DNA of 64,000 bases from Candidatus Levyibacteriota bacterium (lineage in GTDB: Bacteria > Patescibacteriota > Microgenomatia > Levybacterales > UBA12049): assembly GCA_027334565.1 (NCBI GenBank), contig DAHWUP010000003.1:31961-95960 (forward strand), written 5' to 3'. Positions 811 through 20,824 of this stretch are shown piece by piece. The notes beneath the pieces are model-generated. The model was not told the DNA's origin and did not search any database. It saw nothing but the letters and a program-made list of their open reading frames with translations. A program made the position numbers and the translations under genes. Position 1 is the first letter of the stretch. Each line of letters opens with the position of its first letter.

Positions 811-935
811 CTGATTTGCCCAAGCGGCGAATTGGCCTTCGTCGATCACATTGATATCACCGAAAAAAGGACTTAAGGTCTGGGCCGAACCTACCATGAA
901 AGCCAATATGCAAAATATGACTATCTCGAAAAAAA

Positions 936-1946
936 TTATCTTTTTTTGAGCTTTAATAATGTCCATATGCTCCAAAAAATCAAAGAAACGATGAAATTAA
1001 ACATGAGAAAGGTATACAAGAAATAATAATCCTGCTGTTTCGGATAATTGTATTCCGTAAGCCAGTTTATGGCAGATGTCGCGGGAATTTTAAATTTAAA
1101 GTTAAATATCATTAAGATGAACGAATAAATCAGTGAGGAGGTAATTAATGCAAACGACATGAATATCATATGCTCCGGTATGCTTATATTTTTTGAGGCT
1201 TGAGTTCTCCAATACCCGAACCTTGATAGCGGTAAAACTATTGAATAGGCCTTGAGATATTTTGGAAGCCATCGTAAAAGTTTGAAATTTGACTTTCCGG
1301 CCGGACGATCGTACCAAACCGTAGGGATTTCACCTATTTTATAACCCTTTTTAAACGCCTTCAGTGTTATTTCCAGAGAATATTCAAAACCACCGGTGCT
1401 TTCGATCTGAATTTTTTCAAGAAGAGTTTTGCGGTACATTTTAAAAGCATTAGTGGCGTCATGCGTCGGAAGTTTGAAAAGATAATGCAGGGTAAGACCG
1501 GCAGTTTTTGAAAGAAAAGTTTTAAGCATTGGTCCTCCAATCTTCTTTCCGCCTTTCATGTATCTTGAACCGCAGATAATATCATAGCCCTGGCTAATTT
1601 TTTTATACATTTTGTCGATGTCCGAAAGATCATCCGAAAGATCCGCCATTACCGCAACAACCGCTTTGCCTCTGGCCTTGAAGAATCCGGTTTTAATAGC
1701 ATTGGTTACTCCGCGACCGTTACCGGTAGAATTCTTGGCCAATAAAATGTTTTTGCTTTTTGAAGAAATAAGATATTTTTTGACTACGGAAACTGTAGGA
1801 TCATTTGTTTGGTCATAAATAATAAATACCTCGTAAGAATTTTTCACCTTATCTGTTATTTGTCGCAATAATTCGATAATAGTTTTTTCTTCGTGAAATA
1901 CGGGTATGACTATTGATATGATGGGATTATATCGCGCCATTTTCAA
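936..1946 (-). CDS. GT2 glycosyltransferase, polyprenyl/dolichyl-phosphate sugar synthase (Dpm1/GtrB/ArnC-like) with C-terminal TM segment
   Basis: The N-terminus IISIVIPVFHEEKTI..IIYDQTNDPT plus a DxD-like motif are typical of the GT-A fold of GT2. The C-terminal ~100 aa is hydrophobic. Confidence 0.8.
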   Translation of the reverse strand: MKMARYNPIISIVIPVFHEEKTIIELLRQITDKVKNSYEVFIIYDQTNDPTVSVVKKYLISSKSKNILLAKNSTGNGRGVTNAIKTGFFKARGKAVVAVMADLSDDLSDIDKMYKKISQGYDIICGSRYMKGGKKIGGPMLKTFLSKTAGLTLHYLFKLPTHDATNAFKMYRKTLLEKIQIESTGGFEYSLEITLKAFKKGYKIGEIPTVWYDRPAGKSNFKLLRWLPKYLKAYSIVLPLSRFGYWRTQASKNISIPEHMIFMSFALITSSLIYSFILMIFNFKFKIPATSAINWLTEYNYPKQQDYYFLYTFLMFNFIVSLIFWSIWTLLKLKKR

Positions 1947-2946
1947 TTTGGGTTTTTATCCAGGGTATGACCTCGTCCAGAATCTGCTCCAAGCTTGTTT
2001 TTGCTTCGAATCCAAGAATTCTTTTGGCCTTCGAAGTATCAGGCACTCTTTTTTGCACGTCATACGTATAAGGCTTATCGGAAACGTATTTGAACGGATT
2101 TTTTTGGTCGGTTTTTTCCCAGATAAGTTTAGCCAATTCCAATACGGTTGTGGATTTATTTGTTGAAAGATTGAAATCTTCATTCAATGCTTTTTTGGAA
2201 AATACCGCCAGTTTTATTCCCTCTGCGAGATCTCCGCCGTAGGTATAATGTCTGATCTGGTTGCCATTGCCTAAGATATGAAGAGGGTATTGGCCCTTTA
2301 ATGCCTTTTGAACGAGATCCGGAACGACATGGCTCATGGCTAGGTTGATATTTCCGCTTTTTATTTCTTTTCCGGTGATAGCTCTTGCTTCGCCTATCCC
2401 GACGCAGTTGAACGGCCTAACAACGGTATAAGGCAGCCCGTATTGTTCGTATGCTCCTTTGGCAAAGTATTCGGTTGCAAGTTTTTGGAATCCGTATGTG
2501 GATTTAGGGGGAGGGGAAGTAAGTACGGCGGATTCGGGGGTAGGGAACCGATCGACGGATTCAAATACCATGCTAGAAGAAACCACAGTTATTTTTTTAA
2601 GCCGGTACTTGTCGTGGGCATATATCGCCGCATCGAAGGTGGATGCGGTTATGCGTTCGTTTTCTGCCAGAAGGTCATAAGCGAGCTCGTGAAAATAACT
2701 TATTCCCCCGATTTTTGCCGCCAATGCTATTAAGTGATCGCAGTCCTTTAAAAGTTCTTTTAAAAGCCTGGTATTTTTTACATCTCCTCTTACAAGTTGG
2801 TAATTTTTATGACTATCATAATTTTTATTGACTTTACCGTATTTTGAGAAGTTATCGATCCCGACAACCTTATGGCCGTCACGTAAAAGATTTTCAACCA
2901 AATATCCACCGATGAAACCGGATGAGCCGGTTACCAATATTTTCAT
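1927..2946 (-). CDS. NAD-dependent nucleotide-sugar epimerase/dehydratase (extended SDR)
   Basis: N-terminal Rossmann motif KILVTGSSGFIGGYLVENLL. The 339-aa length is typical of UDP-sugar 4-epimerase/4,6-dehydratase family members. Confidence 0.85.
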   Translation of the reverse strand: MKILVTGSSGFIGGYLVENLLRDGHKVVGIDNFSKYGKVNKNYDSHKNYQLVRGDVKNTRLLKELLKDCDHLIALAAKIGGISYFHELAYDLLAENERITASTFDAAIYAHDKYRLKKITVVSSSMVFESVDRFPTPESAVLTSPPPKSTYGFQKLATEYFAKGAYEQYGLPYTVVRPFNCVGIGEARAITGKEIKSGNINLAMSHVVPDLVQKALKGQYPLHILGNGNQIRHYTYGGDLAEGIKLAVFSKKALNEDFNLSTNKSTTVLELAKLIWEKTDQKNPFKYVSDKPYTYDVQKRVPDTSKAKRILGFEAKTSLEQILDEVIPWIKTQIENGAI

Positions 2947-4211
2947 TTGCTGTTTCGTAAAAGATTTACCTGGTTTACCGTAAATACCAGTTTATTGATG
3001 CCGAATGTATTCCAAACGTCGCAGATATAAACGTTTTTATTAAGCTTTTTAAGGATTTCGCCGGCTTTATCTTCGTATACTTTATGTCTGGTGGCCACAA
3101 ACAGCACATCAATGCCTTTTAAGGCTTCATTTAAATCGTTTAGTACTTCCTGCTGTGAATACTCCTTTACATATGGGTCATGTAAAACGATTTTGGCGTG
3201 TTCACGGATAAGTGCTTTCCTGATCTTAAAGCTTAACGATTCCCTGATATCATCAACTTCTGGTTTAAATGCAAGTCCTAAGATCAGCACTTTCTTGTTT
3301 TTTAAGTTGATCCTTTCCCTGATTTTTCGGACCAAAAAAAGCGGGAGACTTTCGTTAATCTTCCACGAGGCGGTTATTAGGTCCAGGTATGGATTGTCGT
3401 TGATCAAAAAGAAACCGTCCTTAAAAAGACATGGTCCTGCGGTAAGGCCCGGAAGTGCCAGTCCTCCTCTTTTATAGTCGGTGTTGACGAGATTAACGAT
3501 ATCATGAATATTGCGGTTGAAATGTTCCGCCACTACCATGAATTCGTTCGAAATCGCAAAACTGATATATCGGTACATGTTGGTGAATAGTTTGGCGAGT
3601 TCGGCCGAGGTGGAATCTGTCAACAAACATTTTACACCGAAACTCTCAAAAAATTCCTTTGCTTTGCGGTTTGAATCGTCGCCGATCCCGCCGATAATCT
3701 GAGGGATGGTTTTTGTTTCGGTGATCGATTTTCCCTCAGCAACTCTTTCGGGGCAAAACGCCAGAAAAAGGTCTTTGCCTATTTTGAATTTTGTTTGATT
3801 TTCAAGTTTTTCCTTAACATAAATGGTGGTTCTTGGCGAAACGGTGCTTCTTAGAATTATCAACTGATCTTTTTTAAGAAATGGAAGCATACTGTCAAAT
3901 GCAGCCTCGACCTGGTCTAAAACCGGGTTCATGTTCTCGTCGATAGGGGTTCCGAGGGTCAGAATAATCGTTTTACATTCTTTAATGCTCTCGTAGGAGA
4001 TTGTAGGAAGAAATTTTTTTCCGACATGTTTTTTAAGTAGTTCTGCGCCTTCATCCTTGAAAGGCATTTTTCCTTTAAGTAGCTCATTTATTTTTTCGAT
4101 ATTCCTTCCAATGCCGAAAACCTTATACCCGCTATCGGCCAAAACCAGCGCGAGAGGCAAACCGACCCTTCCAATGCCGATAACCGCAACCGCTTTTTTC
4201 TTCATGTGCAT
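2943..4211 (-). CDS. UDP-sugar/nucleotide-sugar 6-dehydrogenase (Ugd/WecC/Udg family)
   Basis: N-terminal AVIGIGRVGLPLALVLADSGYKV Rossmann fold. Central region shows GLAFKPEVDDIRES. Length 422 aa. Overlaps the epimerase gene by 4 nt. Confidence 0.85.
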   Translation of the reverse strand: MHMKKKAVAVIGIGRVGLPLALVLADSGYKVFGIGRNIEKINELLKGKMPFKDEGAELLKKHVGKKFLPTISYESIKECKTIILTLGTPIDENMNPVLDQVEAAFDSMLPFLKKDQLIILRSTVSPRTTIYVKEKLENQTKFKIGKDLFLAFCPERVAEGKSITETKTIPQIIGGIGDDSNRKAKEFFESFGVKCLLTDSTSAELAKLFTNMYRYISFAISNEFMVVAEHFNRNIHDIVNLVNTDYKRGGLALPGLTAGPCLFKDGFFLINDNPYLDLITASWKINESLPLFLVRKIRERINLKNKKVLILGLAFKPEVDDIRESLSFKIRKALIREHAKIVLHDPYVKEYSQQEVLNDLNEALKGIDVLFVATRHKVYEDKAGEILKKLNKNVYICDVWNTFGINKLVFTVNQVNLLRNSK

Positions 4212-4245
4212 TATTCTAGCATGAAAATGGAGTGAATTAAAGCTT

Positions 4246-4276
4246 ATTTATTAGCCATGGCGGATATTGTATAATC
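4246..4276 (+). promoter_or_regulatory. Candidate extended -10 promoter (TGTATAAT at 4269-4276) for the 4290 glycosyltransferase operon
   Basis: TGnTATAAT match 14 nt upstream of the ATG, in a divergent intergenic region. Confidence 0.3.
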
Positions 4277-4289
4277 GCTTTTATTACCG

Positions 4290-6884
4290 ATGAAAGTGTC
4301 GTTAATTACCACAGTATACAACGAGGAAAATACCATCGATAATTTTCTTAAGTCGGTTTTTGCACAGACAAAACCTCCGGACGAAGTCATTATTGTCGAC
4401 GGCGGATCAACCGATGCAACTCGGTCAAAAATCACAGATTTTCTATCGCGCGTAAAAGATAAGGGCGGATTAGACTTCATAATTCTGGCTAAAAAGGGGA
4501 ACAGGTCCGTGGGGAGGAATGAAGCAATAAGCAAAGCCTCAAATGAAATAGTCGCGATATCTGACGCGGGAAATATCTTGGATAAACATTGGTTGGAGAA
4601 CATTACCAAGCCTTTCCAGAATAAAAAAATAGACGTGGTAGCGGGTTATTATAAAGGATTAGCCAAGAACATTTTTCAGAAGTGTCTTATCCCGTATGTT
4701 TTGGTTATGCCGGATAAAGCCAAAGGAGAGTTTTTGCCTGCTACCCGTTCGATGGCTATAAAAAAATCCGTTTGGAAAAAAGCCGGCAGGTTTGATGAAA
4801 GACTATCACACAACGAGGATTATGCTTTCGCAAACAAATTAAAATCAATTGGGGTCAATATGGTATTCGCCAAAGACGCGGTTGTAAATTGGGTACCAAG
4901 AGGGGATTTAAAATCGTCGTTTGTGATGTTTTTCAGGTTTGCGCTTGGTGATATCGAAGCGAAAATTTTTAGACCCAAAGTTATACTGATTTTCGTCAGA
5001 TATTTTTTGTTATTTTACTTATTATGGTTTTCGTTTGTCTATAAATCTCAAATTTTATTTTCGATAATCGTTTTAGGAATGATGTTGTATTTAATTTGGG
5101 CTGTTTATAAAAATTACAGGTATGTAAAGGATTCCAAAGCTTTTGTAATTTTACCGGTTATACAAATAACAACAGATGTTTCTGTTATGCTGGGTTCGGT
5201 TACAGGTTTTCTGAAAATAATTTTACGTATCAATTATTTAAAGGTAATAAGGTCAAATTTGTACTTATCGATCATTTTATTAATTTACTCGATTGTGATT
5301 CTATCGGGTATAACTTGGGGATTACCGAATGTTAATCATCCTTTTACATACTACATGGACGAATGGCATTTTTTAGTGGCTTTAAAATCGTTTATTAAGT
5401 TAGGTACACCTGGGGTTCCGGGAGGCGCGTATTCACCTATATTTTATCATTTATTAAACGCATTGTTTTTAATTCCATTCACCGTTTTTGGGATAATCCA
5501 TCCGTTTTCCGTAAAATCGTCGGTTACCCAGCTAATCGAGCAAAGACATATTTTTGAAGTACTGCGGCTTACCACCTTAATTTATGGAATTTTAAGTATT
5601 ATTTTTATATATAAAATTACAAAGGAATTCTTTAGCAAGAATTGGTTGATTGGTGTACTTATATTTGTTCTAAATCCACTGTTTATTTTATGGAGTGGTT
5701 GGTATAAGTATGATATTCCGGAACTATTTTGGATCACTTTTTCGATTTATTTATTTTTAAAGTTTTCGATGAATCCAAGCTTTAAAAATCTTTTATTTGC
5801 GGTAATAGTAAGTGCGTTGGCAGTTTCGGTTAAGTTTAGCGCATTACCATTGTTTGGAGTATATATAATAGCGTTTCTTTTATTCTACAAAAAACCCTTA
5901 AAAAATTTAAACAAGTTGTTCACAGGCGTCTTAATTTATGTGGCAGTGTTTTTAATATTTGGATTACCGGATTTATTTTTTAATTCCGCAAGCTATATAG
6001 AGTTGCTAAAAGTAAATCTTCTATCGGTGACAAAAGCTGGAGGATTTAATAATTTGAACATAAATATGCCAGGTTGGCAAATTCTCTTTTTTTTGCATTA
6101 CCCTTCGGTATTTGGATATTTTACATTAGGAGTTTTTATTTTATCTATCATATTTTCATTGGCTTTCATATTACGAAATATTCTCCGCGGCAAATTTGTG
6201 CATGTTAAAACTATAGTTTTTATTTTACTTTCCTTGGCGGGATTTTGCGCAAGTTTAGCCACGCTCGGAATTGGGGCGGCAAATGACAGAATATTGGTTT
6301 TACTACCCTTTATGGCAATAACAGTAAGTTTTGCATTAAATTTTGTTTTACAAAAAGAATATCTTAAAAGTTTAATTGTTGTGGTCTTTGTGATAGGGTT
6401 TTTGCTTCAAGCAATCCAAACAGCTTCATGGCTTTATTTCAAATACGAAACCCCGCTTCAGGAATCATCGAGTATTTGGATAATGAGAAATATTCCTAAA
6501 GGTACATTGATTGGAATCGAAAATATTCCCATATACCAAGGACTTCCTGATATAGCGTTAAAAGAATTTTATACACAACAAAAATATCCGTACGGTGATT
6601 ATTCATATCATTATCAGGTTATTGGCCTTGACACTAAACATTTTCCAGATACCGTAATAGTGACAAGTGGTGAATTAAATACCGAATATTTAAAAAACTC
6701 TCCAAAACAGCAACTTGTTGAAAAATTAAACCGGGAAGGGTTTGAGGATATAAGGAATTTCAAACTGGATACGCGATTTTTCGATATCTTTTCGAACAAA
6801 CTAAATCTTCTTGATTGGAATCTAGTTCCGCAGCCCTCAGAAATTACAATATATGTAAGAGAAGGCAATTTTGCGATTAAATGA
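4290..6884 (+). CDS. Fusion protein: N-terminal GT2 glycosyltransferase domain (~230 aa) fused to a ~600-aa polytopic membrane domain (GT-C/PMT/ArnT-like)
   Basis: The N-terminus reads VSLITTVYNEENTI...VIIVDGGSTDAT, a GT2 signature. The remainder has more than 12 predicted TM helices. It contains YYMDEWHF in an early loop, resembling the DE motif of GT-C enzymes. Confidence 0.75.
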   Translation: MKVSLITTVYNEENTIDNFLKSVFAQTKPPDEVIIVDGGSTDATRSKITDFLSRVKDKGGLDFIILAKKGNRSVGRNEAISKASNEIVAISDAGNILDKHWLENITKPFQNKKIDVVAGYYKGLAKNIFQKCLIPYVLVMPDKAKGEFLPATRSMAIKKSVWKKAGRFDERLSHNEDYAFANKLKSIGVNMVFAKDAVVNWVPRGDLKSSFVMFFRFALGDIEAKIFRPKVILIFVRYFLLFYLLWFSFVYKSQILFSIIVLGMMLYLIWAVYKNYRYVKDSKAFVILPVIQITTDVSVMLGSVTGFLKIILRINYLKVIRSNLYLSIILLIYSIVILSGITWGLPNVNHPFTYYMDEWHFLVALKSFIKLGTPGVPGGAYSPIFYHLLNALFLIPFTVFGIIHPFSVKSSVTQLIEQRHIFEVLRLTTLIYGILSIIFIYKITKEFFSKNWLIGVLIFVLNPLFILWSGWYKYDIPELFWITFSIYLFLKFSMNPSFKNLLFAVIVSALAVSVKFSALPLFGVYIIAFLLFYKKPLKNLNKLFTGVLIYVAVFLIFGLPDLFFNSASYIELLKVNLLSVTKAGGFNNLNINMPGWQILFFLHYPSVFGYFTLGVFILSIIFSLAFILRNILRGKFVHVKTIVFILLSLAGFCASLATLGIGAANDRILVLLPFMAITVSFALNFVLQKEYLKSLIVVVFVIGFLLQAIQTASWLYFKYETPLQESSSIWIMRNIPKGTLIGIENIPIYQGLPDIALKEFYTQQKYPYGDYSYHYQVIGLDTKHFPDTVIVTSGELNTEYLKNSPKQQLVEKLNREGFEDIRNFKLDTRFFDIFSNKLNLLDWNLVPQPSEITIYVREGNFAIK

Positions 6885-7732
6885 GCGTTAGCAGCAAGAA
6901 TTTCGATCAAAATTATTATTTCAATACTTGTTTTGGCAGTGATGAATTTATAAGGAGCAAAGGCCGGGAAATTACCAAGAGAGTGCAAAAGCTTATTGAC
7001 AGCCTTAATCTTTCTAATGAAATGGTAGTGTTGGAAGTTGGTTGCGGCAGGGGCGATACCTCTTTATATATAGCAAAAAAGGTTAAAAGGGTTATCGGAA
7101 TAGATTACTCAAAAGATGCTATTAAAATCGCAAATAAAGTCAAATCCCAAGCAGATCGGAAAACCGAACAAAAACTCAAATTTCTTGTTATGCGGGCGGA
7201 TAAAATGAACTTTAAAGATAACATTTTCGATTTTATAATAATGATAGATACGCTTGATCATTTAAATAAATATGAAGTAGAAAATACGTTTAAGTCGCTA
7301 ATGAGAATGCTTAAGCCGGATGGGAAAATTTTTATTAAAACATGCGCAAACAAAATTCTCTTAGATAAAACCTACAGATACTACATTCATCCGATGAATA
7401 AGGTTTTAACTACATTTGATAAATTTATTAAGGGTATTTATTACGAATCACTTCCTGATGATCCCAGAACCAAAGAAGCTAAGATTCAACACATCAACGA
7501 AGCGGATTATTTTTACATTCGTAAATTAATGCGGAAATACAAACTTAAAGCTGATATCAAAGCCGAGACTGGATTTTTAACAAACAACAAAGGAATAAGA
7601 AGCAAAATCTATAATTTTATCGTAACTTTATATCCGGTTTCCCAATATTTTCCACTTAACGTTTTATTTGCACATGCTTTTCTTATATCGGCCAAGAAAA
7701 ATGACCGGTCTGTAAAAATTCAATATTCTTAG
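6881..7732 (+). CDS. Class I SAM-dependent methyltransferase
   Basis: Motif I VLEVGCGRGDTSLYIAKK. ATGA overlap with the upstream gene. Sits within the glycan locus (possible sugar O-methyltransferase). Confidence 0.75.
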   Translation: MSVSSKNFDQNYYFNTCFGSDEFIRSKGREITKRVQKLIDSLNLSNEMVVLEVGCGRGDTSLYIAKKVKRVIGIDYSKDAIKIANKVKSQADRKTEQKLKFLVMRADKMNFKDNIFDFIIMIDTLDHLNKYEVENTFKSLMRMLKPDGKIFIKTCANKILLDKTYRYYIHPMNKVLTTFDKFIKGIYYESLPDDPRTKEAKIQHINEADYFYIRKLMRKYKLKADIKAETGFLTNNKGIRSKIYNFIVTLYPVSQYFPLNVLFAHAFLISAKKNDRSVKIQYS

Positions 7733-7761
7733 TCGACATGTTATACTTATAAGGCCAGTTT

Positions 7762-8982
7762 ATGGGTTATACAAAAAGTGCGATACAAGGTATTTCGTGG
7801 ATGACCGGACTTCAGACAGTAATACGAATATTTACATTCCTAAAAATTGCGGTTTTAGCAAGGGTTCTAACTCCTAATCAATTTGGTGTTTTCGGAATTG
7901 CAGCATTATTGCTTGCATTATTGGAAATTCTTACAGAAACAGGGATTAATATAATTTTAATTCAATCTAAAGAAACTATCGATAAATATTTGGATTCAGC
8001 ATGGGTAGCCTCAATTATACGAGGCATTATTATTTGCTTAGGGATCGTTATTTCAGCGCCTTTCATTGCATCATTTTTTAATACGCCTCAAGCATTAGGA
8101 ATAATTATATTTATTAGCTTAGCACCATTTATTAAAGGTTTTATAAACCCTGCCGAAATAATTTTCCAGAAGGAGCTTAACTTTAGGACTGAATTTTTAT
8201 TCAGGACTTCGTTGTATTTTATGGATGCATTTGCTGCAATAGTTTTCGCATTAATTACGCATTCAGTCTATAGCCTGGCAATGGGATTGATCGCTTCGGG
8301 ATTACTGGAGGTTATTTTATCGTTTTACCTAATAAAATTAAGGCCAAAATTAAGATTTGAGAAAGAATATTTAAGAGAAATTTTTCACAAAGGTAAGTGG
8401 GTAACCGGTTATAGTATCTTAAATTATTTTGGTGAAAACAGCGACAATATTGTAGTCGGAAGACTTTTGGGTGCAACTCCTTTAGGTATTTATCAAATGG
8501 CATATAGGGTGTCGATTACTCCGATAACTGAGATTTCCGATGTCGTTAATAAAGTAATTTTTCCGGTTTATTCAAAAATAGATGAAGACAGGCAGCGTTT
8601 AAAAAACGCTTTTGTAAAAACTTTTTCGATTAATACTATTGGAACATTTATTCTTGGTTTAATTATCTTTTTATTTCCGAAGGAAATAATAAGCATAGTA
8701 TTGGGTCAGCAATGGGTTAGCGCAACAGATGTGCTCCGAGTGCTGGCAATATTCGGAATTATACGAGCTTTCACGTCTCCGGCATCCGTTGTTTTGCTAT
8801 CTACAATAAATCAAAGATATTTGACCTATATCACTTTTGCTCGACTGATCGCCTTACTTATTTTTATAATTCCTCTTGTATTAAAATTCGGGATAATCGG
8901 CGCTGGCTATGCGCAAATAATATCTACTCTTGCCACTATTCCCGTAATTTTGTATTCGCTAAATAAAATTTTTAAGACCTAA
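7762..8982 (+). CDS. Polysaccharide biosynthesis protein / oligosaccharide flippase (Wzx-like, MOP superfamily)
   Basis: 406-aa polytopic membrane protein with the layout typical of Wzx/RfbX flippases. Its position in the glycosyltransferase cluster supports this. Confidence 0.7.
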   Translation: MGYTKSAIQGISWMTGLQTVIRIFTFLKIAVLARVLTPNQFGVFGIAALLLALLEILTETGINIILIQSKETIDKYLDSAWVASIIRGIIICLGIVISAPFIASFFNTPQALGIIIFISLAPFIKGFINPAEIIFQKELNFRTEFLFRTSLYFMDAFAAIVFALITHSVYSLAMGLIASGLLEVILSFYLIKLRPKLRFEKEYLREIFHKGKWVTGYSILNYFGENSDNIVVGRLLGATPLGIYQMAYRVSITPITEISDVVNKVIFPVYSKIDEDRQRLKNAFVKTFSINTIGTFILGLIIFLFPKEIISIVLGQQWVSATDVLRVLAIFGIIRAFTSPASVVLLSTINQRYLTYITFARLIALLIFIIPLVLKFGIIGAGYAQIISTLATIPVILYSLNKIFKT

Positions 8983-10083
8983 ATGAAAATCGCTATTTTC
9001 CATGAACTGCCGGAAGGCGGAGCCAAATATGCAACAAATAAAATCGGCAGCTTGCTCAAGTCGTTTGGCCATACAGTCGATTTGTATTATGTGGCTGATA
9101 AAGAAGATGATTCAGGGAGTTTGGATTTTAATAGCGTATATTTCTATTGTTTTAAGCCAAAGATCTGGAAAGGGTCGAATTCCAGGACCAGAATATATAA
9201 AGATACCCTGGAGTTATATAAAATTTATAAACTGGACCGTGTGATTGCCAGAGACTTGGATTCCAAACACTACGATTTTGTTTTGGTTAACGCTTCACAG
9301 TTTATTGAATCTCCGTTTATTTTAAGATTTTTAAAAACACGTAAATTTTTTTATGCCCATGACCCCAATTATCGGATAATCTACGAAAAGATACTTGATA
9401 TACCGAAATCTTTAAATATTATAAAGTTTCATTATGAAAAGCTTAACAGGCTTTTAAGGAAAAAGCTTGATAGGGATAACCTTAGTAAAGCGGATCTAAT
9501 TCTTACAAATTCGAAATTTGCCAAAGATGTAATTAATAGAACTTATCATTTAAAAAGTGAAGTTGCTTATTTAGGCGTGAATACAAATTTATTTGTCCCC
9601 GGGGAAATAAATAAAGAACTTGATATATTGTTCGTGGGGACATTTGAGCCGGTTGACGGATACGGTATTTTATCAAAAGCTATAGAATTGATACAAAACA
9701 AACCAAGAGTTTTTGCCGTTCCGGGCAAAGACGATAAAACGTATGATATCGAGGAGATGATTGATTTATATCAAAAAAGTAGGATGGTCGTATGTCTTGC
9801 CGTTAACGAGCCGTTTGGGCTGGTGCCGCTTGAAGCAATGGCTTGCGGGATACCGGTGATAGCGGTTAACGAAGGGGGATATAAAGAAACGGTGGTCGAC
9901 GGGAAAACCGGTTTTTTAATAAAACGAGATGCTTCTTCTCTGGCCGAAAAAATACAAAAACTTTTATCGGATACCAAACTATCCGAGCAAATGGGCAAAG
10001 CGGGGAGAGAAGAGGTTTTAAAAAAATGGACTTGGGAAAAACGGGGACGGGAACTTGAGAAAATTTTGCTATCACACTTATGA
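8983..10083 (+). CDS. GT4 (GT-B fold) glycosyltransferase
   Basis: C-terminal EPFGLVPLEAMACGIPVIAVNEGGYKETVVDGKTGFL is the GT4 signature. Confidence 0.85.
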   Translation: MKIAIFHELPEGGAKYATNKIGSLLKSFGHTVDLYYVADKEDDSGSLDFNSVYFYCFKPKIWKGSNSRTRIYKDTLELYKIYKLDRVIARDLDSKHYDFVLVNASQFIESPFILRFLKTRKFFYAHDPNYRIIYEKILDIPKSLNIIKFHYEKLNRLLRKKLDRDNLSKADLILTNSKFAKDVINRTYHLKSEVAYLGVNTNLFVPGEINKELDILFVGTFEPVDGYGILSKAIELIQNKPRVFAVPGKDDKTYDIEEMIDLYQKSRMVVCLAVNEPFGLVPLEAMACGIPVIAVNEGGYKETVVDGKTGFLIKRDASSLAEKIQKLLSDTKLSEQMGKAGREEVLKKWTWEKRGRELEKILLSHL

Positions 10084-12233
10084 ACGTATCGATAATCACC
10101 GTTAATTACAAAGTCGGGGAGAAGGTCTTAAAATGCATCGAAAGCATCGAGGAAACGGTGAGAAATCTGACATACGAAATGATCGTGGTGGACAACGAGG
10201 GCGATACTAACCTTGAGAACCGACTTAATGAACATAAGCACGTTAAATATATAAAAGCCCCAAAAAATATCGGATTCGGTGCGGGAAATAACCTGGGCGT
10301 AAAACACGCTTCGGGTAAATATCTGTTTTTCCTAAATCCAGACACCGTGGTTACTAAGGACGCCATAAAAGTTCTTTACTCATTTCTGGAAAAGGATAAA
10401 ACCGCCGGAATGATTTCCCCACTTATTTTAAAGAATGGCGGACAGCCGCTCGACAAACAGGGATATAAAGAGCTTAATTTAACAAGCGGAGTTTTTACTT
10501 ATTCGTTTTTAAGAAAGTTTTTCCCGAAATATTCCGCCGAAAGTTTCTACTCACTAGCGGACTGGGATAAGACTCCGATAAGACAGGTTGAAACCGTTTA
10601 CGGCGCAGCCATGATGATTTCCAAGGACTTGTTCGATAAGGCCGGCGGATTTGATGAAGATTTCTTTTTATACTTTGAAGAAAACGATCTGTCCAAAAGG
10701 GTAAGGGATTTAGGTTTTAAACTCTATGTCGATGCGAACGCCAGGATAATTCATGAAGTAGGGCAAAGCACAGGGCAATACAGCGACAGAGATGCAATTT
10801 ATGCAAAAAGCAGATACTTATATTTTAAAAAACATTTTGGCAATGTCCGGGCTTTAATGCTTGAGGCGTTATTGAAAGTAAATAAAATCAATCTATTATT
10901 ATTGTTGGCACTTGCCGCGGGGTTAATCCTTAGATTATATAATCTTCAAAACGGCATGCCTTTTATCGGGGACCAGGGCTGGTTCTATCTTTCCGCCAGG
11001 GACATGCTTATTTATGGAAAAATTCCGTTAGTAGGAATTACCTCGAGTCACATCTGGTTGCACCAGGGTCCTTTATGGACATACATGCTGGCTGTAGTTT
11101 TGCCGATTGTTAATTTTGATCCCTTGGCCGGGGCGTACCTGACGATTTTTCTTGGTCTTGCGACGATAATCTTCATGTATAAAATTTGTTCGGAGATGTT
11201 TTCTCAAAATGTAGGTATTTTGGCTTCGTTTTTGTATGCTGTTTCACCCGCGGTCGTTGCTTCGGACAGGATGCCCTTCGATCCCAGCCCGATACCATTA
11301 TTTACACTCCTTTATTTTTATTCGGTATACCGATGGCTAAAAGGTAGTAACAATTTCTTTCCGTTGACATTGTTTTTTGTGGCTATTTTATATAACCTGG
11401 AACTTGCGACCTTTAGTTTGTTCTTCCCGCTTCTGTTGATTTTTTTATACGGTTTAATCAAAAGAAGTGTTTGGATTAAAAGTTTAAAAAACTTGAAAAT
11501 AATTTTTTATTCCATTGCTGCATTTTTAATCCCGATGTTGCCGGTTTTGATTTACGATTTTTATAACGGTTTTAAGCAAACGATAGTTTTTGGCGGTTGG
11601 ATAGTGTATAAATTAGCCGGATTTGTTATCCATCAATCTTCATCGGCTTCAAGCGTTACCGGTGTGATCGATTTTTTAATTAACAGCATTTCGGGACTGA
11701 TTCTGCCAACGTTTACCGTTTTGGCATTTGCTTTATTCTTTTTTGCTTTATTATTTCTACTAATAAAAATTTTAAAACAACGTGTTTTAAGCGATGTTTT
11801 ATTAATGACGTTCGTGATCTTTTCTCTTGGAGGGGTACTTGCTAACCAAGTTCCATCCCAAGCGTATTTGCCGATAATTTTTCCGTTCGTGATTACAATA
11901 ACAGCCATCTTTACAAATTTTTTGGTCTTAAAAAGTAGAATGTTCTACTTACTGTTTTTTATACTTTTAATTACAAATTTTTATTCATCGGCATCATTAG
12001 ATAAAAAGATCGATTTGGGTGATCGAATTAAAGCGGTAAATAAAATAATTGCTTTAACAAGGGGACAAAAATATAATTTAATTGGCAAAGGAAATAACAG
12101 TCAGTTTGAAAGTTTTACCATGAATTACCGGTATTTGTTGTGGTGGAAGGGACATCCCGTCAGCAGCATCTTTGAAAAACTCAAGGTATCGGTCGAGGAG
12201 ACAAACGGTAAAATAATCATTACAAAACTATGA
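10080..12233 (+). CDS. Fusion protein: N-terminal GT2 glycosyltransferase domain fused to a polytopic membrane (GT-C/PMT-like) domain
   Basis: N-terminus VSIITVNYKVGEKVLKCIESI...IVVDNEGD plus FLNPDT. The C-terminal ~450 aa is multi-TM and includes IGDQGWFYLSARDM. Overlaps the upstream gene by 4 nt. Confidence 0.75.
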   Translation: MNVSIITVNYKVGEKVLKCIESIEETVRNLTYEMIVVDNEGDTNLENRLNEHKHVKYIKAPKNIGFGAGNNLGVKHASGKYLFFLNPDTVVTKDAIKVLYSFLEKDKTAGMISPLILKNGGQPLDKQGYKELNLTSGVFTYSFLRKFFPKYSAESFYSLADWDKTPIRQVETVYGAAMMISKDLFDKAGGFDEDFFLYFEENDLSKRVRDLGFKLYVDANARIIHEVGQSTGQYSDRDAIYAKSRYLYFKKHFGNVRALMLEALLKVNKINLLLLLALAAGLILRLYNLQNGMPFIGDQGWFYLSARDMLIYGKIPLVGITSSHIWLHQGPLWTYMLAVVLPIVNFDPLAGAYLTIFLGLATIIFMYKICSEMFSQNVGILASFLYAVSPAVVASDRMPFDPSPIPLFTLLYFYSVYRWLKGSNNFFPLTLFFVAILYNLELATFSLFFPLLLIFLYGLIKRSVWIKSLKNLKIIFYSIAAFLIPMLPVLIYDFYNGFKQTIVFGGWIVYKLAGFVIHQSSSASSVTGVIDFLINSISGLILPTFTVLAFALFFFALLFLLIKILKQRVLSDVLLMTFVIFSLGGVLANQVPSQAYLPIIFPFVITITAIFTNFLVLKSRMFYLLFFILLITNFYSSASLDKKIDLGDRIKAVNKIIALTRGQKYNLIGKGNNSQFESFTMNYRYLLWWKGHPVSSIFEKLKVSVEETNGKIIITKL

Positions 12234-12994
12234 TCTCAGCAGTCATACTTACCAAAAATGAAGAAAAAAACATACTCGATTGCCTTGAAAGCGTTTCCTG
12301 GGTAGACGAGATCATCATTATAGATGATTATTCTACAGACCTAACAGAAAGTGTAGTAAAACAATTTGTAAAAAACAGGAAGATCAGGTTTTTTAAGCGA
12401 AGGCTTGAGAACGATTTTTCGGCACAGCGTAACTTCGGTTTGGAAAAGACAAGATATGATTGGGCGTTGTTCGTTGACGCCGACGAAAGAGTTACAGCAT
12501 CGCTTAGAGAAGAAATAAATTCTATTTTGATCAATGGCACGAATAATTTAAAGACCTCCGGATTTTATGTACCGAGGCTGGATGTTGTTTGGGGAAAAAT
12601 CCTAAAACACGGAGAAACCGGCAATATAAAACTGATTAGATTTGCCAGGAAAAACTCGGGTAAGTGGAAAGGCAAAGTCCACGAGGTGTGGGAGGTAAAA
12701 GGACAAATATCTGAACTTGAAAATCATTTGTTACACTATCCGCATCAGACAGTAAGTGAATTTTTAAGAGAAATCAATTTTTATACCACTATCAGGGCAA
12801 GGGAATTATTCGATAGCGGAATAAAAGTCGGAGCGAAAGAAATTATTTTGTATCCGAAGCTTAAATTTATTGTTAATTATCTATTCAAATTGGGATTTTT
12901 GGACGGTATCGAAGGTCTGGTTTACGCAATCTTGATGAGTTTTCATTCGTTCCTGGTAAGGGCGAAATTATGGATCCTATGGGAAAAAGAGTAG
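12230..12994 (+). CDS. GT2 glycosyltransferase (small soluble WaaE/KdtX-like)
   Basis: N-terminus ISAVILTKNEEKNILDCLESVSWVDEIIIIDDYSTD, with FVDADE as the DxD motif. Confidence 0.8.
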   Translation: MISAVILTKNEEKNILDCLESVSWVDEIIIIDDYSTDLTESVVKQFVKNRKIRFFKRRLENDFSAQRNFGLEKTRYDWALFVDADERVTASLREEINSILINGTNNLKTSGFYVPRLDVVWGKILKHGETGNIKLIRFARKNSGKWKGKVHEVWEVKGQISELENHLLHYPHQTVSEFLREINFYTTIRARELFDSGIKVGAKEIILYPKLKFIVNYLFKLGFLDGIEGLVYAILMSFHSFLVRAKLWILWEKE

Positions 12995-13070
12995 GCGTCT
13001 TTTTGTTTTATACATGGACAATTTTTGTCCTGGCGGTTTACTTTGCTAACCTCTTATGTAGGGTTAACCT

Positions 13071-14651
13071 ATGTTTGAACTGGCATTTTTGATCGGCACA
13101 TTTTCTTATGCGATTTTCTTCTTGGGCGTGCTTGGCTTTTTGTACAAAAGCTATATAATCGTCGTTCTATTGTTATTCTTTTTATCCGGTTTGTATTATT
13201 TTTATTATTATAAACGGATAATGGCACACAATTACACTCTTAAAAAGATATCCCGGGTTTCCAAAATTCTGATTACCATAATTATTCTTCAGGTTTCGGT
13301 TAATCTGGTCGGAGTGCTGGGACCGGAAATATCATTCGACGCGCTTTGGTATCATTTAACCCTGCCAAAAATTTACCTTGAAGCACACCGTATATTTCAT
13401 ATTCCGGGAGGATTATTGTATTATTCCGACATCCCCAAAAATATAGAAATGATATTCTTGGCTTGTCTTTCTTTCGGTAACGAGACATGGGCAAAATTTT
13501 CGCATTTCCTATTCGGTTTATTGACGATTCTTGTAACCTATAAATTTGCCAGAAAGTTCCTTAACGAAAATCTATCACTTTTTGCATCGGCTTTATTTTA
13601 TTCTAACCTTGTCGTCGGATGGGAGTCGATCACGGCTTACGTAGATCTTGGGACAACTTTTTTTACCACGGTTGCATTGTACTGTTTTTGGGAATGGCTG
13701 GAAAAAAAGACCAATAAATTCCTTATATTCACGGCAGTTATCACCGGGTTAACAGTCGCCACCAAAACGGTTTCCTTAAACCTGATCCCTGTCTTTGGTT
13801 TGCTGATACTAGTTAAAGGATTTAGGGACGGATATACCTTTTTAAGAAGCTCTTTTAATCTTGTTCTGTTTACAGCTGTTTCCGTGGTAGTGGGTTCTCC
13901 CTGGTTTATCTTTTCATTCCTAAATACGGGAAATCCTTTCTACCCGCTTTTTGATCCAACACTTAGTATCGTGAATAAATTCTACGCTTTAGGTATCGTA
14001 AACGTTTTTTTGCGGTCACAGGACCCGATAAGCCCCGTATATTTGATCACTCTGCCTTTGATAATTTATTTTTTAAAACGTTTCTCTTTACGGGTTAAAA
14101 TGCTTTTTTTATTCTTTATATCAGCGTTGATATTGTGGTATTTGGATTCCCAGGTGGGCGACAGCAGGTTCCTGTTACCGTATCTTCCGGCTCTTTCGGT
14201 ATTATCCGTTATTTCAATCGACAAATTACATGATAAATTCCTTAAACGATATTTGTTTGCTTTGATTATCATATTGGTGTTTTTTTCAGCTAGTTACCGC
14301 TTTATGGCGAACGCTAAGTATATACCGGTTTTACTGAGAAGCGAGTCGAAATCGGAATTTTTAAGCAAACATCTTAATTTTTCCTTTGGTGATTTCTATG
14401 ACAGCGACGGATATTTCAAAACCCATGTCAAACCTACGGATAAAGTTCTTCTGTATGGATTTCATAATCTCTATTATGTGGATTTTCCCTTTATCGACTC
14501 TTCTTATGTAAAAAAAGGTGACAGGTTTGATTATATTGCGGTCCAGAGCGGAAATATCCCGACAAGGTTTTCAAGTTGGAATAGGATTTACTATAATAGT
14601 TTGACCAAAGTAAGTTTATATTCGCTGGGAGGAAAACAATGGGTTTACTAG
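13071..14651 (+). CDS. Polytopic membrane protein, GT-C-like (ArnT/PMT/dolichyl-phosphate-mannose-dependent transferase-like)
   Basis: 526 aa with more than 10 TM helices. It sits in the glycosylation cluster next to a WaaL-like gene. Confidence 0.5.
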   Translation: MFELAFLIGTFSYAIFFLGVLGFLYKSYIIVVLLLFFLSGLYYFYYYKRIMAHNYTLKKISRVSKILITIIILQVSVNLVGVLGPEISFDALWYHLTLPKIYLEAHRIFHIPGGLLYYSDIPKNIEMIFLACLSFGNETWAKFSHFLFGLLTILVTYKFARKFLNENLSLFASALFYSNLVVGWESITAYVDLGTTFFTTVALYCFWEWLEKKTNKFLIFTAVITGLTVATKTVSLNLIPVFGLLILVKGFRDGYTFLRSSFNLVLFTAVSVVVGSPWFIFSFLNTGNPFYPLFDPTLSIVNKFYALGIVNVFLRSQDPISPVYLITLPLIIYFLKRFSLRVKMLFLFFISALILWYLDSQVGDSRFLLPYLPALSVLSVISIDKLHDKFLKRYLFALIIILVFFSASYRFMANAKYIPVLLRSESKSEFLSKHLNFSFGDFYDSDGYFKTHVKPTDKVLLYGFHNLYYVDFPFIDSSYVKKGDRFDYIAVQSGNIPTRFSSWNRIYYNSLTKVSLYSLGGKQWVY

Positions 14652-15829
14652 AGAAACTTTTCATACTTTTTTTATTTACGTTTCCAACGGGCGTAATTGC
14701 CAGAATTGAACTTTCAAACGGAGTGGCAGTATCGCTTAATGATTTGGTATTATCTGTTTTAATATTGGTTTGGTTTATCTACAAACTAAAAAACAGGAAA
14801 TTTACAAATAATTATCTGTTGAGACCGCTTGCCATATTTGTCGCGATTAGCTTTATAGCACTGCTATTGAACATTTCTGACCTTGGGATTATAAAATTTT
14901 TGATTTCATTTTCATATCTTGCCAGGTATATGGCTTACGCCTTCTTATATTTTATAATCGGGGATTTCTCGTCCAAATTCAGGGAAAAAATCATTAAGTA
15001 TCTTTTTATTTCCGGACTGGTAGTTGTGGTCCTGGGATATTTCCAGTATTTTTTCTACCCGAGTCTTAAGCCGTTATTTAAATTCGGATGGGACGAGCAT
15101 CTTTACCGGATGGTGTCGGTTTTTCTTGATCCTAATTTTGCAGGGGCGTTTTTTAACATATTCTTGTTTTTTACGCTCGATTTTTTAAGGAAAAGCTATA
15201 GAACGTTTTCGAGAACTAAAGTTATTTTTTATTCATTTGTCTCGCTGATCTCACTTTTTGCCGTTTATCTTACCTATTCAAGAAGCGCACTGCTTATGCT
15301 TTTTGTATCGACGGTCGTCTATCTTTGGTTAATAAATAAAAAGAAAATGATCACGGTAGTGCTGGCATTTTTAACTCTTCTAATTTTTGTTTCCCCGCGG
15401 GCATTTCAGACCACGGGAACGGACCTTCTAAGGGTTGTCTCAAGTACCGAGAGGATCAGTTCTTTGCAAATTGCCCTAAAAGTAATTCAGGAGAACCCGC
15501 TTTTGGGTGTAGGTTTTGATGCATACAGATACGCTCAGACCAAGTATGGTCTTGAGGGAGTTTATTGGCAGGTAACCCATTCGGGAGCAGGTACCGACGC
15601 AAGCCTTATTTTTGTTTTAGCGACAACCGGGGTTATCGGTTTTTTTGTTTATCTTTACTTACTGATAAAGGTTTTCAAGCTTGCCAGAAAAAACTTTAAA
15701 AATACCGGTATTGTTCTGTGGGTCATATTAATAGGACTTTTGGTTGATAGTATTTTTATCAATAGTTTGTTTTACGTGTTTATTTTGGAGTGGATATGGA
15801 TTTTGGCCGGGCTTACTGAGAGTAATTGA
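14639..15829 (+). CDS. O-antigen ligase / polymerase family protein (WaaL/Wzy-like)
   Basis: Multi-TM protein carrying the characteristic YSRSALLM motif in a large loop. Overlaps the upstream gene by 13 nt. Confidence 0.7.
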   Translation: MGLLEKLFILFLFTFPTGVIARIELSNGVAVSLNDLVLSVLILVWFIYKLKNRKFTNNYLLRPLAIFVAISFIALLLNISDLGIIKFLISFSYLARYMAYAFLYFIIGDFSSKFREKIIKYLFISGLVVVVLGYFQYFFYPSLKPLFKFGWDEHLYRMVSVFLDPNFAGAFFNIFLFFTLDFLRKSYRTFSRTKVIFYSFVSLISLFAVYLTYSRSALLMLFVSTVVYLWLINKKKMITVVLAFLTLLIFVSPRAFQTTGTDLLRVVSSTERISSLQIALKVIQENPLLGVGFDAYRYAQTKYGLEGVYWQVTHSGAGTDASLIFVLATTGVIGFFVYLYLLIKVFKLARKNFKNTGIVLWVILIGLLVDSIFINSLFYVFILEWIWILAGLTESN

Positions 15830-16520
15830 CCGTTAAATCTTTTTCCGTTCTGTTTCCCGCTTGGTCGGTAGCTACTATTTTTATTTGATTATCACCGTTT
15901 TGAAGAGGTAAGTTATAGGAGAAATTGTTGTTATCGTCAATTACGGCCCAGAAACCGTTGACGGTGACCGAAACTCCAGGATCGGTCGAACCGCTGACCA
16001 AAACGGTATTTTGATCTTTCTGAAATTTTTCTCCATCGGTCGGGTTGGAAACGTCCAGTTTCGGCAGAGAGTTCAAATAAGTGATGCTGATCGGGTTTGA
16101 AAAATTGCTTTCCTTTCCGTTATAAATTTCTTTGGCGGTGATTTGGTTAATGCCTTTGTTCAGTGTTTCGCTAAATTTGAAATTGCCTTTGTCGTCCGCC
16201 GTGGTCTGGTCCGTCTGCAAATTGTTGATATAAAGATAAACATCCCTGCCTTTGTCGGCAATTCCGGTTATAGTCACCTGCGCGCTGTTTGTGGCGGAAA
16301 ACGTAGGATTTAGGGTCGGAGGCGATATAAAGCTGATCGTATTCTGGTCGGATCCGGTCGTTGTGCCCTTTGAGTTGGAGATCAATAAACTAAAATTGAC
16401 CAAAAGTCCCAAACCGAATTTAAAAATCAGAAATAAAATGACAACAATACCCAAAACACTAAAAAAAATGCTTTTCTTAGTGTTTTTTTCCGTTCTTTTG
16501 GTTAACCGCGAAACTCTCAT
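15813..16520 (-). CDS. Membrane-anchored surface protein with bacterial Ig-like domains
   Basis: N-terminal TM segment followed by Thr/Asn-rich beta-rich repeats (VTITGIADKGRD..., VSVTVNGF...). I moved the start to the Met at 16520 because the longer track ORF would overlap tRNA-Thr. Confidence 0.55.
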   Translation of the reverse strand: MRVSRLTKRTEKNTKKSIFFSVLGIVVILFLIFKFGLGLLVNFSLLISNSKGTTTGSDQNTISFISPPTLNPTFSATNSAQVTITGIADKGRDVYLYINNLQTDQTTADDKGNFKFSETLNKGINQITAKEIYNGKESNFSNPISITYLNSLPKLDVSNPTDGEKFQKDQNTVLVSGSTDPGVSVTVNGFWAVIDDNNNFSYNLPLQNGDNQIKIVATDQAGNRTEKDLTVNYSQ

Positions 16521-16522
16521 TT

Positions 16523-16644: not shown

Positions 16645-19299
<2,655 letters not shown>

Positions 19300-19302
19300 A
19301 GT

Positions 19303-20823: not shown

Positions 20824-20824
20824 A

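Follow-up and report, generated by a model that had tools for sequence, protein, structure and literature searches.

A stretch of 64,000 nucleotides from a Candidatus Levyibacteriota bacterium (contig DAHWUP010000003.1, positions 31,961 to 95,960 of the forward strand; hereafter referred to as the window) carries a cell-surface glycosylation island, in which two genes each encode a family 2 glycosyltransferase (GT2) joined to a membrane-embedded glycosyltransferase of the GT-C type. I refer to these fusion proteins as F1 (4290-6884, 864 amino acids) and F2 (10080-12233, 717 amino acids), and to three minus-strand open reading frames (ORFs), all upstream of F1, as ORF A, ORF B and ORF C (Table 1). 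I consider it moderately probable that F1 and F2 are bifunctional, 'two-sided' glycosyltransferases, in which a cytoplasmic elongation step would be tethered to an extracytoplasmic transfer step in the Wzx-dependent assembly of a surface glycan, with ORF A supplying the donor. I read the region as a conserved locus for assembling a glycan of the cell envelope, in an uncultured, Levybacteria-like bacterium of the Patescibacteria (Candidate Phyla Radiation, CPR). All of its components belong to known families, and the pathway logic is like that of known three- or four-component and Wzx-dependent systems; the distinctive feature is the covalent GT-A-GT-C architecture, found in two forms in the window and in two more in the lineage.

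The island and its two fusions had been proposed in an earlier note on this DNA, made from the letters and their translations. The ORF positions and lengths that it gave all match, the island is supported, and Pfam, reading frames across assemblies and AlphaFold show that a GT2 and a GT-C module are genuinely joined in one polypeptide, in F1 as in F2. In Pfam searches, Glycos_transf_2 (79.4 bits in F1, 69.7 bits in F2, cutoff 23.3) is followed in both proteins by PMT_2 (37.1 and 31.0 bits, cutoff 26.1), so that both membrane halves do match a GT-C/PMT-like family. Full-length homologues of each fusion number more than 100, with 41-60% identity and 95-100% query coverage, a few truncated entries aside; where a source is named, it is nearly always Patescibacteria or 'Candidatus Levybacteria'. 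When species-representative genomes were scanned with a pattern, 217 had an F1 relative, and I followed the reading frames through 81 loci, namely the best 80 of these 217 genomes and one metagenome contig (L002). The same fusion recurs there as an uninterrupted single frame, for F1 in 58 of the 81 loci and for F2 in 31. Structure prediction from 40-sequence alignments gave confident and continuous models for both proteins (F1, pLDDT 87.1 and pTM 0.84; F2, pLDDT 87.2 and pTM 0.77).

Split and single-module versions do occur in some genomes, and could be taken to mean that in each long ORF an error of sequencing or assembly has run two genes together. This explanation is ruled out by the intact frames in independent assemblies, and is made hardly conceivable by the number of full-length homologues, by the continuity of the models, and by the identical F1 protein recorded on 4 contigs. 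What did not hold is the description of F1 and F2 as paralogues. BLASTP aligns them over only 146 amino acids of the GT-C core (33% identity, E 2e-4) and finds nothing significant between the GT2 halves, and hhalign gives 19-20% identity per half. By these comparisons F1 and F2 are alike at the superfamily level only and are not close paralogues; a recent duplication is rejected on both measures. Automated annotation already sees both domains, as in the JGI label 'GT2 family glycosyltransferase/4-amino-4-deoxy-L-arabinose transferase-like glycosyltransferase', and a literature search of incomplete full-text coverage found no paper describing GT2-GT-C fusions or Levybacteria glycosylation.

Catalytic classes of the two halves

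The GT2 halves of F1 and F2 had been read as Dpm1/GtrB-like, an assignment with which sequence profiles, NCBIfam, fold and the SRY motif all disagree. A 13-sequence profile of the F1 GT2 domain, searched against the Protein Data Bank (PDB), is led by the chondroitin synthase K4CP (3e-14), TarS, TarP, RmlT and PcManGT, with DPMS (6e-6), GtrB (3e-5) and ArnC (3e-4) far behind. The F2 GT2 domain matches TarP and chondroitin synthase, and no DPMS, GtrB or ArnC entry of the PDB at E<=1. The best NCBIfam matches are MftF-like, EpsD and TuaG for F1, and rhamnosyltransferase and MftF for F2; F1 also passes the Pfam Glyco_transf_21 cutoff (25.6 against 21.7 bits), and scores 26.6 bits on NCBIfam HpnI, for which the cutoff is 310. 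The hallmarks of DPMS are a DADxQHPP motif and a set of residues that hold the Dol-P phosphate, in PfDPMS Arg117 (of the 'SRY' motif), Arg131, Ser135 and Lys178 (PMC12992685). Aligned by hhalign with a 48-sequence profile of ORF A relatives (hereafter A-like), SRY corresponds to 'GY-Y' in F1; its counterpart in F2 is 'SPL', with an invariant P114. The Arg is absent in both.

Because the sequence profiles, the fold ranking and the loss of the SRY Arg agree, the two GT2 halves are placed in other classes, F1 probably with the membrane-embedded PcManGT/hyaluronan-synthase-like enzymes and F2 with the GlfT2/chondroitin-synthase/rhamnosyltransferase-like enzymes; membership of the DPMS/GtrB/ArnC class is not supported for either. 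The match of F1 residues 1-315 to the PcManGT and hyaluronan synthase folds extends beyond the GT-A core. Compared with PcManGT (PDB 6YV7) and the class I hyaluronan synthases, F1 is without an N-terminal transmembrane (TM) helix, has 'FFRFALGD' at the QxxRW site, and continues into a GT-C domain. At that site, as read from the sequence rather than from a residue-level structural alignment, only the Arg and an aromatic residue are kept ('FFRFA'). The helices that would hold the GT-A domain at the membrane are of the interface and hydrophobic kinds in F1, and in F2 only basic amphipathic ones before the first GT-C TM helix; a GT-A domain followed by interface and TM helices also occurs in CesA-like GT2s, and is therefore non-discriminating.

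The standalone Dpm1-like GT2 reported beside the fusions was confirmed as ORF A. Its best match in a phmmer search of the PDB is DPMS (5mlz, 4.4e-18), followed by ArnC and then GtrB, and its best NCBIfam matches are ArnC, PgfS, Dol-P hexose transferase, AglJ and PpgS, all under cutoff. It has GSRY at residues 126-129, retains S135 and the equivalent of D91, and replaces R131 by Lys; its two hydrophobic helices span residues 260-278 and 309-327. I propose from these features that ORF A is a polyprenyl-phosphate-sugar synthase-like enzyme, the sole one of the DPMS/ArnC/GtrB class identified in the window.

Both loop motifs quoted for the membrane halves exist. YYMDEWHF corresponds to F1 residues 354-361 (nucleotides 5349-5372), with M356, D357, E358, W359 and H360 invariant in the 40-sequence alignment, and GDQGWFYLSARDM corresponds to F2 residues 297-309 (nucleotides 10968-11006), with G297, D298, G300, W301, F302 and Y303 invariant in its own 40-sequence alignment. 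In the AlphaFold secondary structure the first TM helix of the GT-C module is followed by a helix that begins with the motif, in F1 as in F2, and hhalign makes the two motifs coincide within one residue, F1 W359 falling on F2 W301. In the protein O-mannosyltransferases (PMTs, with their DE motif), ArnT, PglB and others, the catalytic acidic residues lie in the loop after TM1. By analogy, I infer that F1 D357-E358 and F2 D298 are equivalent to the catalytic acids of the solved GT-Cs, and propose that the two GT-C halves use a polyprenyl-phosphate-sugar donor on the extracytoplasmic side. Profiles of the GT-C halves, compared with all PDB sequences, gave no match, so the GT-C membership rests on Pfam and on fold; by family profile (with PF02366 PMT also precomputed on many F1 homologues) and by fold, for which the marks are a conserved N-terminal TM module and juxtamembrane helices within the first external loop, both membrane halves are GT-Cs. 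Set against the GT39 family (Pmt1/2/4 and the actinobacterial Pmt) and ArnT (GT83), F1 and F2 have no sequence-level match to the solved members and no MIR domain, and carry an N-terminal Leloir glycosyltransferase.

Topology was judged from hydropathy, charge and secondary structure. The topology predicted for F2 is straightforward, the GT2 domain being followed by the basic amphipathic helices, one TM helix and the D298 loop. F1 has four helices between the GT-A domain and the DE loop, of which helix 284-313 carries positive charges on both flanks and the invariant residues Q292 and D296. Since the GT-A domain must be cytoplasmic, the N-termini of GT-Cs are cytoplasmic, the modules are independent and both flanks are charged, this helix is most likely interfacial or re-entrant, not membrane-spanning. 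From this topology the C-terminal domain of F1, whose strands in the AlphaFold model span residues 740-744, 774-778, 788-792, 818-825 and 851-857, is predicted to be extracytoplasmic.

By their invariant residues, both halves of F1 and of F2 look catalytically intact: D37, D92 (SDAG) and N175-E176-D177 are invariant in the F1 GT2 domain in the 40-sequence alignment, and the F2 GT2 domain has the invariant residues given in Table 1. The GT-C halves might instead be inert membrane anchors or scaffolds, which hold the GT2 beside the flippase. Many soluble or peripheral GT2s do need membrane partners, for example in the pairs WpsA-WpsB and GacI-GacJ (PMC10821137), and the missing match to any solved GT-C is in keeping with such a role. 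However, not only the acidic residues F1 D357-E358 and F2 D298 but dozens more positions of the membrane domains are strictly invariant among proteins of 41-60% overall identity, and the GT-C modules persist as standalone genes. An inert membrane half is therefore very unlikely.

Module combinations in related genomes

A tblastn search of the 81 loci with the proteins encoded in the window recovers a recurrent gene order in dozens of genomes, namely F1-(A-like)-Wzx-(methyltransferase)-GT4-F2-GT2-GT-C-Wzy_C-(Ig protein), and the locus adjoins the atp operon in both places checked, the window and L071. Many metagenome-assembled genome (MAG) records with this Levybacteria-type synteny (L003, L004, L010, L011 and others) are titled 'uncultured Gammaproteobacteria bacterium', and single ones Saccharimonadales, Limnocylindrales or Sulfotelmatobacter, which probably reflects errors of labelling or binning.

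The modules of both fusions also occur apart. The F1 GT2 with its TM helices stands alone in 16 of the 81 loci, mostly as a complete ORF of 317-366 amino acids, the F1 GT-C stands alone in 2, and the two halves are separate genes in 2. For F2, the GT-C is alone in 6 loci and the GT2 in 3, and a further 3 loci encode the halves as separate genes. Searched exhaustively, F1 residues 1-315 matched 547 cluster representatives at E<=1e-30. Of the top 150, about 33 are at least 600 amino acids long, mostly the closest relatives; the other 117 or so fall below this length, and most of them are standalone proteins of 290-370 amino acids with full query coverage; by cluster name, one of 10 standalone GT2+TM relatives is labelled 'Armatimonadota'. 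Since the more distant relatives are mostly standalone, the comparison indicates that the F1 fusion is a derived state of an autonomous membrane GT2 of about 315 amino acids.

The A-like gene is, in other genomes, mostly a form of about 240 amino acids without TM helices. Of the 45 loci with the F1 GT-C half, 16 have it as the next gene downstream of F1, its start overlapping the F1 stop in some, and 30 have an A-like gene within 4 kb of F1; where only the GT2+TM part is present, the latter holds for 2 of 11 loci (Fisher p 0.006, kinship ignored). The genes for the putative A-like donor synthase thus track the F1 GT-C half.

A smaller arrangement is seen in three minimal loci (L065, L069 and L071, for example L071:6917-14794), which consist of a GT2, two GT4s, a standalone F1-type GT2+TM protein of 315 amino acids, Wzx, a short GT2, Wzy_C and the Ig protein. 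No GT-C is present in these, and neither a DPMS-like gene nor one for a phosphoglycosyltransferase lies within 10 kb; the 250-amino-acid GT2 of L071 was checked as a DPMS-like candidate and is not one.

A third fusion, F3, of about 750 amino acids, occurs in six loci, L002 (12621-14885), L003, L004, L052, L053 and L076. In five of them its gene is directly downstream of the F1 homologue, and in L052 it is about 6.5 kb away on the opposite strand. The GT2 domain of F3 is DPMS/PpgS/AglJ/ArnC-like (5mlz, 2.5e-23) and keeps the DxD and SRY motifs, R131 and S135; after it come a single TM helix, a loop with the sequence 'TWDEFQY' and the PMT/PMT_2 matches. The F3-type GT-C family takes three forms, as the fusion to a DPMS-like GT2, as a standalone protein of about 512 amino acids (NCBI 'GT39 family protein'), and as a fusion to an N-terminal GT4 of about 885 amino acids. 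Counting F1 and F2, the Levybacteria appear from these sequences to attach at least four Leloir glycosyltransferases to GT-C modules. I searched the window for a member of the F3-type GT-C family and found none; ORF A and the membrane ORF next to it (1-933) were considered as a split F3, which is ruled out, the latter having no homology to the F3 membrane half. Beside the F1/F3 cluster of L002, positions 18005-21661 encode a GHMP kinase, a SIS isomerase, a nucleotidyltransferase and a HAD phosphatase. Together these resemble a pathway to nucleotide-activated heptose, a hint that the glycan made by L002 may contain this sugar.

The architecture envisaged in the earlier note, a DPMS-like GT2 fused to a GT-C, therefore exists in the sister Levybacteria, as F3, mostly directly downstream of F1 homologues, and does not exist in this window. 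It could nonetheless be supposed that in F1, in F2 or in both the GT2 half makes the polyprenyl-phosphate-sugar inside and that its own GT-C half uses it outside. The lineage does build such fusions, the F1 GT2 is membrane-embedded and has weak Glyco_transf_21 and HpnI matches, and the minimal loci pair the GT2+TM protein with Wzx and have no DPMS-like or phosphoglycosyltransferase gene nearby. In F1 and F2, however, the profiles, NCBIfam and fold put the GT2 halves nearer to glycan-acceptor or CesA-like GT2s, and the phosphate-binding Arg of SRY is absent. Moreover, a dedicated DPMS-like gene is present as the separate ORF A, whose relatives track the F1 GT-C half, and one of the partners of the related GT-C family is a GT4, an enzyme that cannot belong to the DPMS type. 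I regard this coupling of synthesis and transfer as unlikely for F1 and F2, and the claim that their GT2s feed their own GT-Cs is not borne out. Since the partners are interchangeable and the modules free-standing, the comparison argues that each half is an autonomous catalyst, rather than part of an obligate synthase-transferase channel.

The membrane-embedded GT2 of F1 also admits a role in priming a glycolipid, in the style of phosphatidylinositol mannosides, lipomannan and lipoarabinomannan. In mycobacterial lipomannan assembly, GT-Cs such as PimE extend glycolipids with polyprenyl-phosphate-mannose. By this analogy the F1 GT2 would glycosylate a non-polyprenyl lipid and, after flipping, the GT-C half would extend it with the donor made by ORF A, F1 being primer and extender at once. 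The fold, nearest to PcManGT and the hyaluronan synthases, the Glyco_transf_21 and HpnI matches, and the A-like DPMS genes beside the F1 GT-C half are all in line with this. However, the acceptor lipid is purely hypothetical, the Glyco_transf_21 score is barely over its cutoff and the HpnI score far under, and Wzx together with Wzy_C suit a repeat-unit polymer better. I give this possibility a small chance.

A bolder idea, and a quite improbable one, is that by repeated fusion of Leloir glycosyltransferases (a GT4 and three subtypes of GT2) to GT-Cs the Levybacteria have produced self-contained trans-bilayer machines, whose polytopic domain also translocates the lipid-linked intermediate. A single protein would then attach a sugar on the inside, move the carrier across and make the transfer on the outside, most purely in F3, of which F1 and F2 would be variants. 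If true, this would be the first single-protein synthase-flippase-transferase, and would give a handle on how polyprenyl-phosphate-sugars are flipped.

Proposed pathway and comparison with known systems

If F1 and F2 are indeed two-sided glycosyltransferases, the island may work as follows. The ORF C dehydrogenase and the ORF B epimerase/dehydratase would tailor nucleotide sugars, and ORF A would charge polyprenyl phosphate with a sugar. A lipid-linked glycan or glycolipid would then be elongated on the cytoplasmic side by four enzymes or domains, the GT4, the short GT2 and the GT2 halves of the two fusions. The methyltransferase may modify it, and the Wzx-type flippase would carry the lipid-linked intermediates across the membrane. 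Outside, the three GT-C modules (F1, F2 and the standalone one) and the Wzy_C protein would polymerise the glycan or transfer it to its final acceptor, for which a polymer of the wall, a lipid and a surface protein rich in Ser/Thr are candidates. Fusion would fix a 1:1 pairing, and so co-localise one inner-face with one outer-face step around the carrier lipid.

Several points weigh against this reading. The scan of the window, which at 20-64 kb covered about two thirds of the ORFs of at least 120 amino acids, found no initiating phosphoglycosyltransferase (Bac_transf, or a Glycos_transf_4 of the MraY/WecA type), and for this reason the priming step would fall to ORF A or to an enzyme whose gene lies elsewhere. 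At the profile level a relationship between the F1 GT2 and the A-like family can still be detected (hhalign E 2e-15), and the minimal loci leave room for the F1-type GT2+TM protein to act, perhaps, on the carrier lipid itself. For F1 the model depends on a topology in which helix 284-313 does not span the membrane, as judged only from its flanking charges and from the independence of the modules. The co-occurrence of A-like genes with the F1 GT-C half (30/45 against 2/11) is not phylogenetically corrected. Finally, the functions ascribed to F1 and F2 are predictions from sequence and models.

The closest parallel is the lactococcal pellicle polysaccharide (PSP), for which a GtrB-like enzyme primes C55-P, cytoplasmic glycosyltransferases elongate, a Wzx-type flippase exports, and GT-Cs polymerise or attach the product (PMC10821137). 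The same set of parts as in the PSP pathway (WpsA/B, WpsC-F, WpsG, WpsH/I and WpsJ) and in the streptococcal GacI/J/K/L system (PMC10821137) is found in the window, as ORF A, the GT4 and GT2s, Wzx and the three GT-C modules. The flippases of those systems (WpsG and GacK) are of the Wzx type, not of the GtrA type, and so is the flippase candidate of the window, among whose scanned ORFs no GtrA-family match was found. In contrast to PSP and Gac, the window fuses two cytoplasmic glycosyltransferases to two GT-Cs, adds a Wzy_C protein, has no identified rhamnan-like acceptor polymer, and belongs to a CPR host.

Two other comparisons are informative. With respect to the three-component systems (GtrA/GtrB/GtrC, ArnC/ArnE-F/ArnT, CsbB/GtcA/YfhO and Ppm1/Pmt), ORF A fits the synthase and the GT-C modules fit the transferase, whereas the GT2s that are fused to GT-Cs in the window are not of the synthase class; the synthase-GT-C fusion is confined to the F3 of sister genomes. 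With respect to the Wzx/Wzy repeat-unit pathway, both Wzx and Wzy_C are present, and the initiating enzyme is the part lacking among the ORFs scanned. Fusion of a GT2 to a polytopic membrane module that takes over the following pathway step has precedents. Mycobacterial Ppm1 is a synthase fused to an Lnt-like membrane domain. The type-III DPMS of Pyrococcus furiosus is fused to a GtrA-like TM domain (PMC12992685). In both, however, the GT2 is the synthase itself, and its membrane partner is a putative flippase or acyltransferase, not a GT-C.

GT-A or GT-B enzymes and GT-C enzymes are normally separate proteins on opposite faces of the membrane, and which of them belong together is usually settled genetically. 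The fused and split combinations described here provide 'Rosetta-stone' evidence for partnerships between inner- and outer-face enzymes, and the fusions are compact structural targets for the hand-over of lipid-linked intermediates across the bilayer. Conserved beside the ATP synthase operon, the locus is also an entry point to the surface chemistry of small, probably epibiotic Patescibacteria, whose envelopes are barely characterised. No new enzymology is demonstrated; what the fusions offer is information on which enzymes are partners.

Gene content of the island and its surroundings

All the neighbours listed in the earlier note (GT2, GT-C, Wzx, ligase-like protein, methyltransferase, GT4 and GT2 enzymes, and sugar tailoring enzymes) were found by the Pfam and PDB searches, and are given in Table 1.

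Table 1. Features of the glycosylation island in the window, and related proteins. NCBIfam scores are given in the text.
Feature	Position	Strand	Evidence or remark
Polytopic membrane ORF, 5' part	1-933	(-)	311-codon open frame off the window start; 'VIDEGQF' acidic loop after first hydrophobic helix
ORF A, GT2 of the DPMS/ArnC/GtrB class	936-1946	(-)	PDB phmmer, NCBIfam, GSRY motif, 2 C-terminal hydrophobic helices
ORF B, NAD-dependent sugar-nucleotide epimerase/dehydratase (short-chain dehydrogenase/reductase, SDR)	1927-2946	(-)	Pfam Epimerase 3.4e-40, GDP_Man_Dehyd 1.8e-37
ORF C, nucleotide-sugar 6-dehydrogenase (UDP-Glc/UDP-ManNAc dehydrogenase family)	2943-4211	(-)	Pfam UDPG_MGDP_dh N, central and C domains
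F1 GT-A (GT2) catalytic domain, residues 1-205	4290-4904	(+)	Pfam Glycos_transf_2, Glyco_tranf_2_3, Glyco_transf_21
F1 interface helix (FFRFALGD, 214-221) and hydrophobic helices 229-250, 254-279, 284-313	4905-5234	(+)	
F1 GT-C membrane domain, residues ~316-735	5235-6494	(+)	Invariant MDEWH 356-360
F1 C-terminal alpha/beta soluble domain, residues ~736-864, and stop codon	6495-6884	(+)	AlphaFold (AF2) secondary structure
SAM-dependent methyltransferase	6881-7732	(+)	Pfam Methyltransf_25/11/31; start overlaps F1 stop by 4 nt
MOP-family (Wzx-type) lipid-linked glycan flippase	7762-8982	(+)	Polysacc_synt_3 3.8e-73
GT4 (GT-B fold) glycosyltransferase	8983-10083	(+)	Glycos_transf_1 2.4e-30, Glyco_transf_4
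F2 GT-A (GT2) domain, residues 1-236, and basic amphipathic helices 237-265	10080-10874	(+)	Invariant N86-P87-D88, E200-E201-x-D203 (EENDL)
F2 GT-C membrane domain 266-660 and small C-terminal beta domain 661-717	10875-12233	(+)	Invariant GDQGWFY loop 297-303 after TM1
Short soluble GT2, 254 amino acids, without TM helix	12230-12994	(+)	Glycos_transf_2 1.7e-19; weak SunS-like NCBIfam match
Standalone GT-C (PMT/PMT_2)	13071-14651	(+)	PMT_2 32.9 bits, PMT 31.1 bits; 'SFDALWYH' loop 88-95
Wzy_C polytopic protein (O-antigen ligase, polymerase or O-oligosaccharyltransferase type)	14639-15829	(+)	Wzy_C 4.2e-16, 59.5 bits against cutoff 31.7
TM-anchored surface protein, Ig-like/Glucodextran_B domains	15813-16550	(-)	Pfam; Ser/Thr-rich linker ~51-90, 37-40% S+T
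F3-family GT-C proteins (related genomes)			P0280, P0288, P0298, P0307, P0311, P0314, P0316, P0318, P0321

The eight plus-strand genes from 4290 to 15829 form a tight, translationally coupled operon, in which 4 of the 7 junctions overlap by 4-13 nucleotides and a fifth abuts; the minus-strand ORFs A, B and C, read as a divergent operon for precursors, likewise overlap at their start and stop codons. The divergent gap between the two sets is 78 bp, and a promoter and terminator scan of it returned 1 site against 0.9 expected. The G+C content of the island (936-15829) is 0.366, against 0.408 in the remaining window (16551-64000), and falls to 0.32-0.34 in F1, the methyltransferase and Wzx; low G+C is common in surface-polysaccharide loci.

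Among the individual genes, ORF B has NCBIfam matches of the LegB, GalE, RmlB and UXS-like kinds, none reaching its cutoff, and ORF C scores 320 bits on TIGR03026, against a cutoff of 189.8. The flippase matches the NCBIfam MOP flippase (5.6e-59), TuaB and O-glycosylation flippase models, and the standalone GT-C aligns with the F2 GT-C by hhalign at a probability of 80%. The membrane ORF directly downstream of ORF A, at the edge of the window, had no match in a Pfam scan, and may be a further member of the island, with a GT-C-like function.

An Ig-domain protein of the kind that follows Wzy_C in the window adjoins Wzy_C in 5 of the 80 species-representative loci (L065, L069, L070, L071 and L082). 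In streptococci, Ser/Thr-rich regions are glycosylated (PMC12041528), and by analogy the Ser/Thr-rich Ig-domain protein of the window is a speculative candidate for an O-glycosylation acceptor.

The rest of the window is housekeeping in character, with the atp operon, dnaE, gatA/B, murT/gatD, pyrG, uvrB, eno, pgm and others. The MurT/GatD pair (29729-31770, minus strand) consists of a Mur ligase with a MurT_C domain and a CobB/CobQ-type amidotransferase, and suggests lipid II isoglutamine amidation as in Gram-positive-type walls. A GGDEF diguanylate cyclase is encoded at 25879-26718 (minus strand). A NAGPA-like phosphodiester glycosidase (53255-54433) and a transglutaminase-like protein (60046-61878), both on the plus strand, are further genes of the window, and either may act on the envelope.

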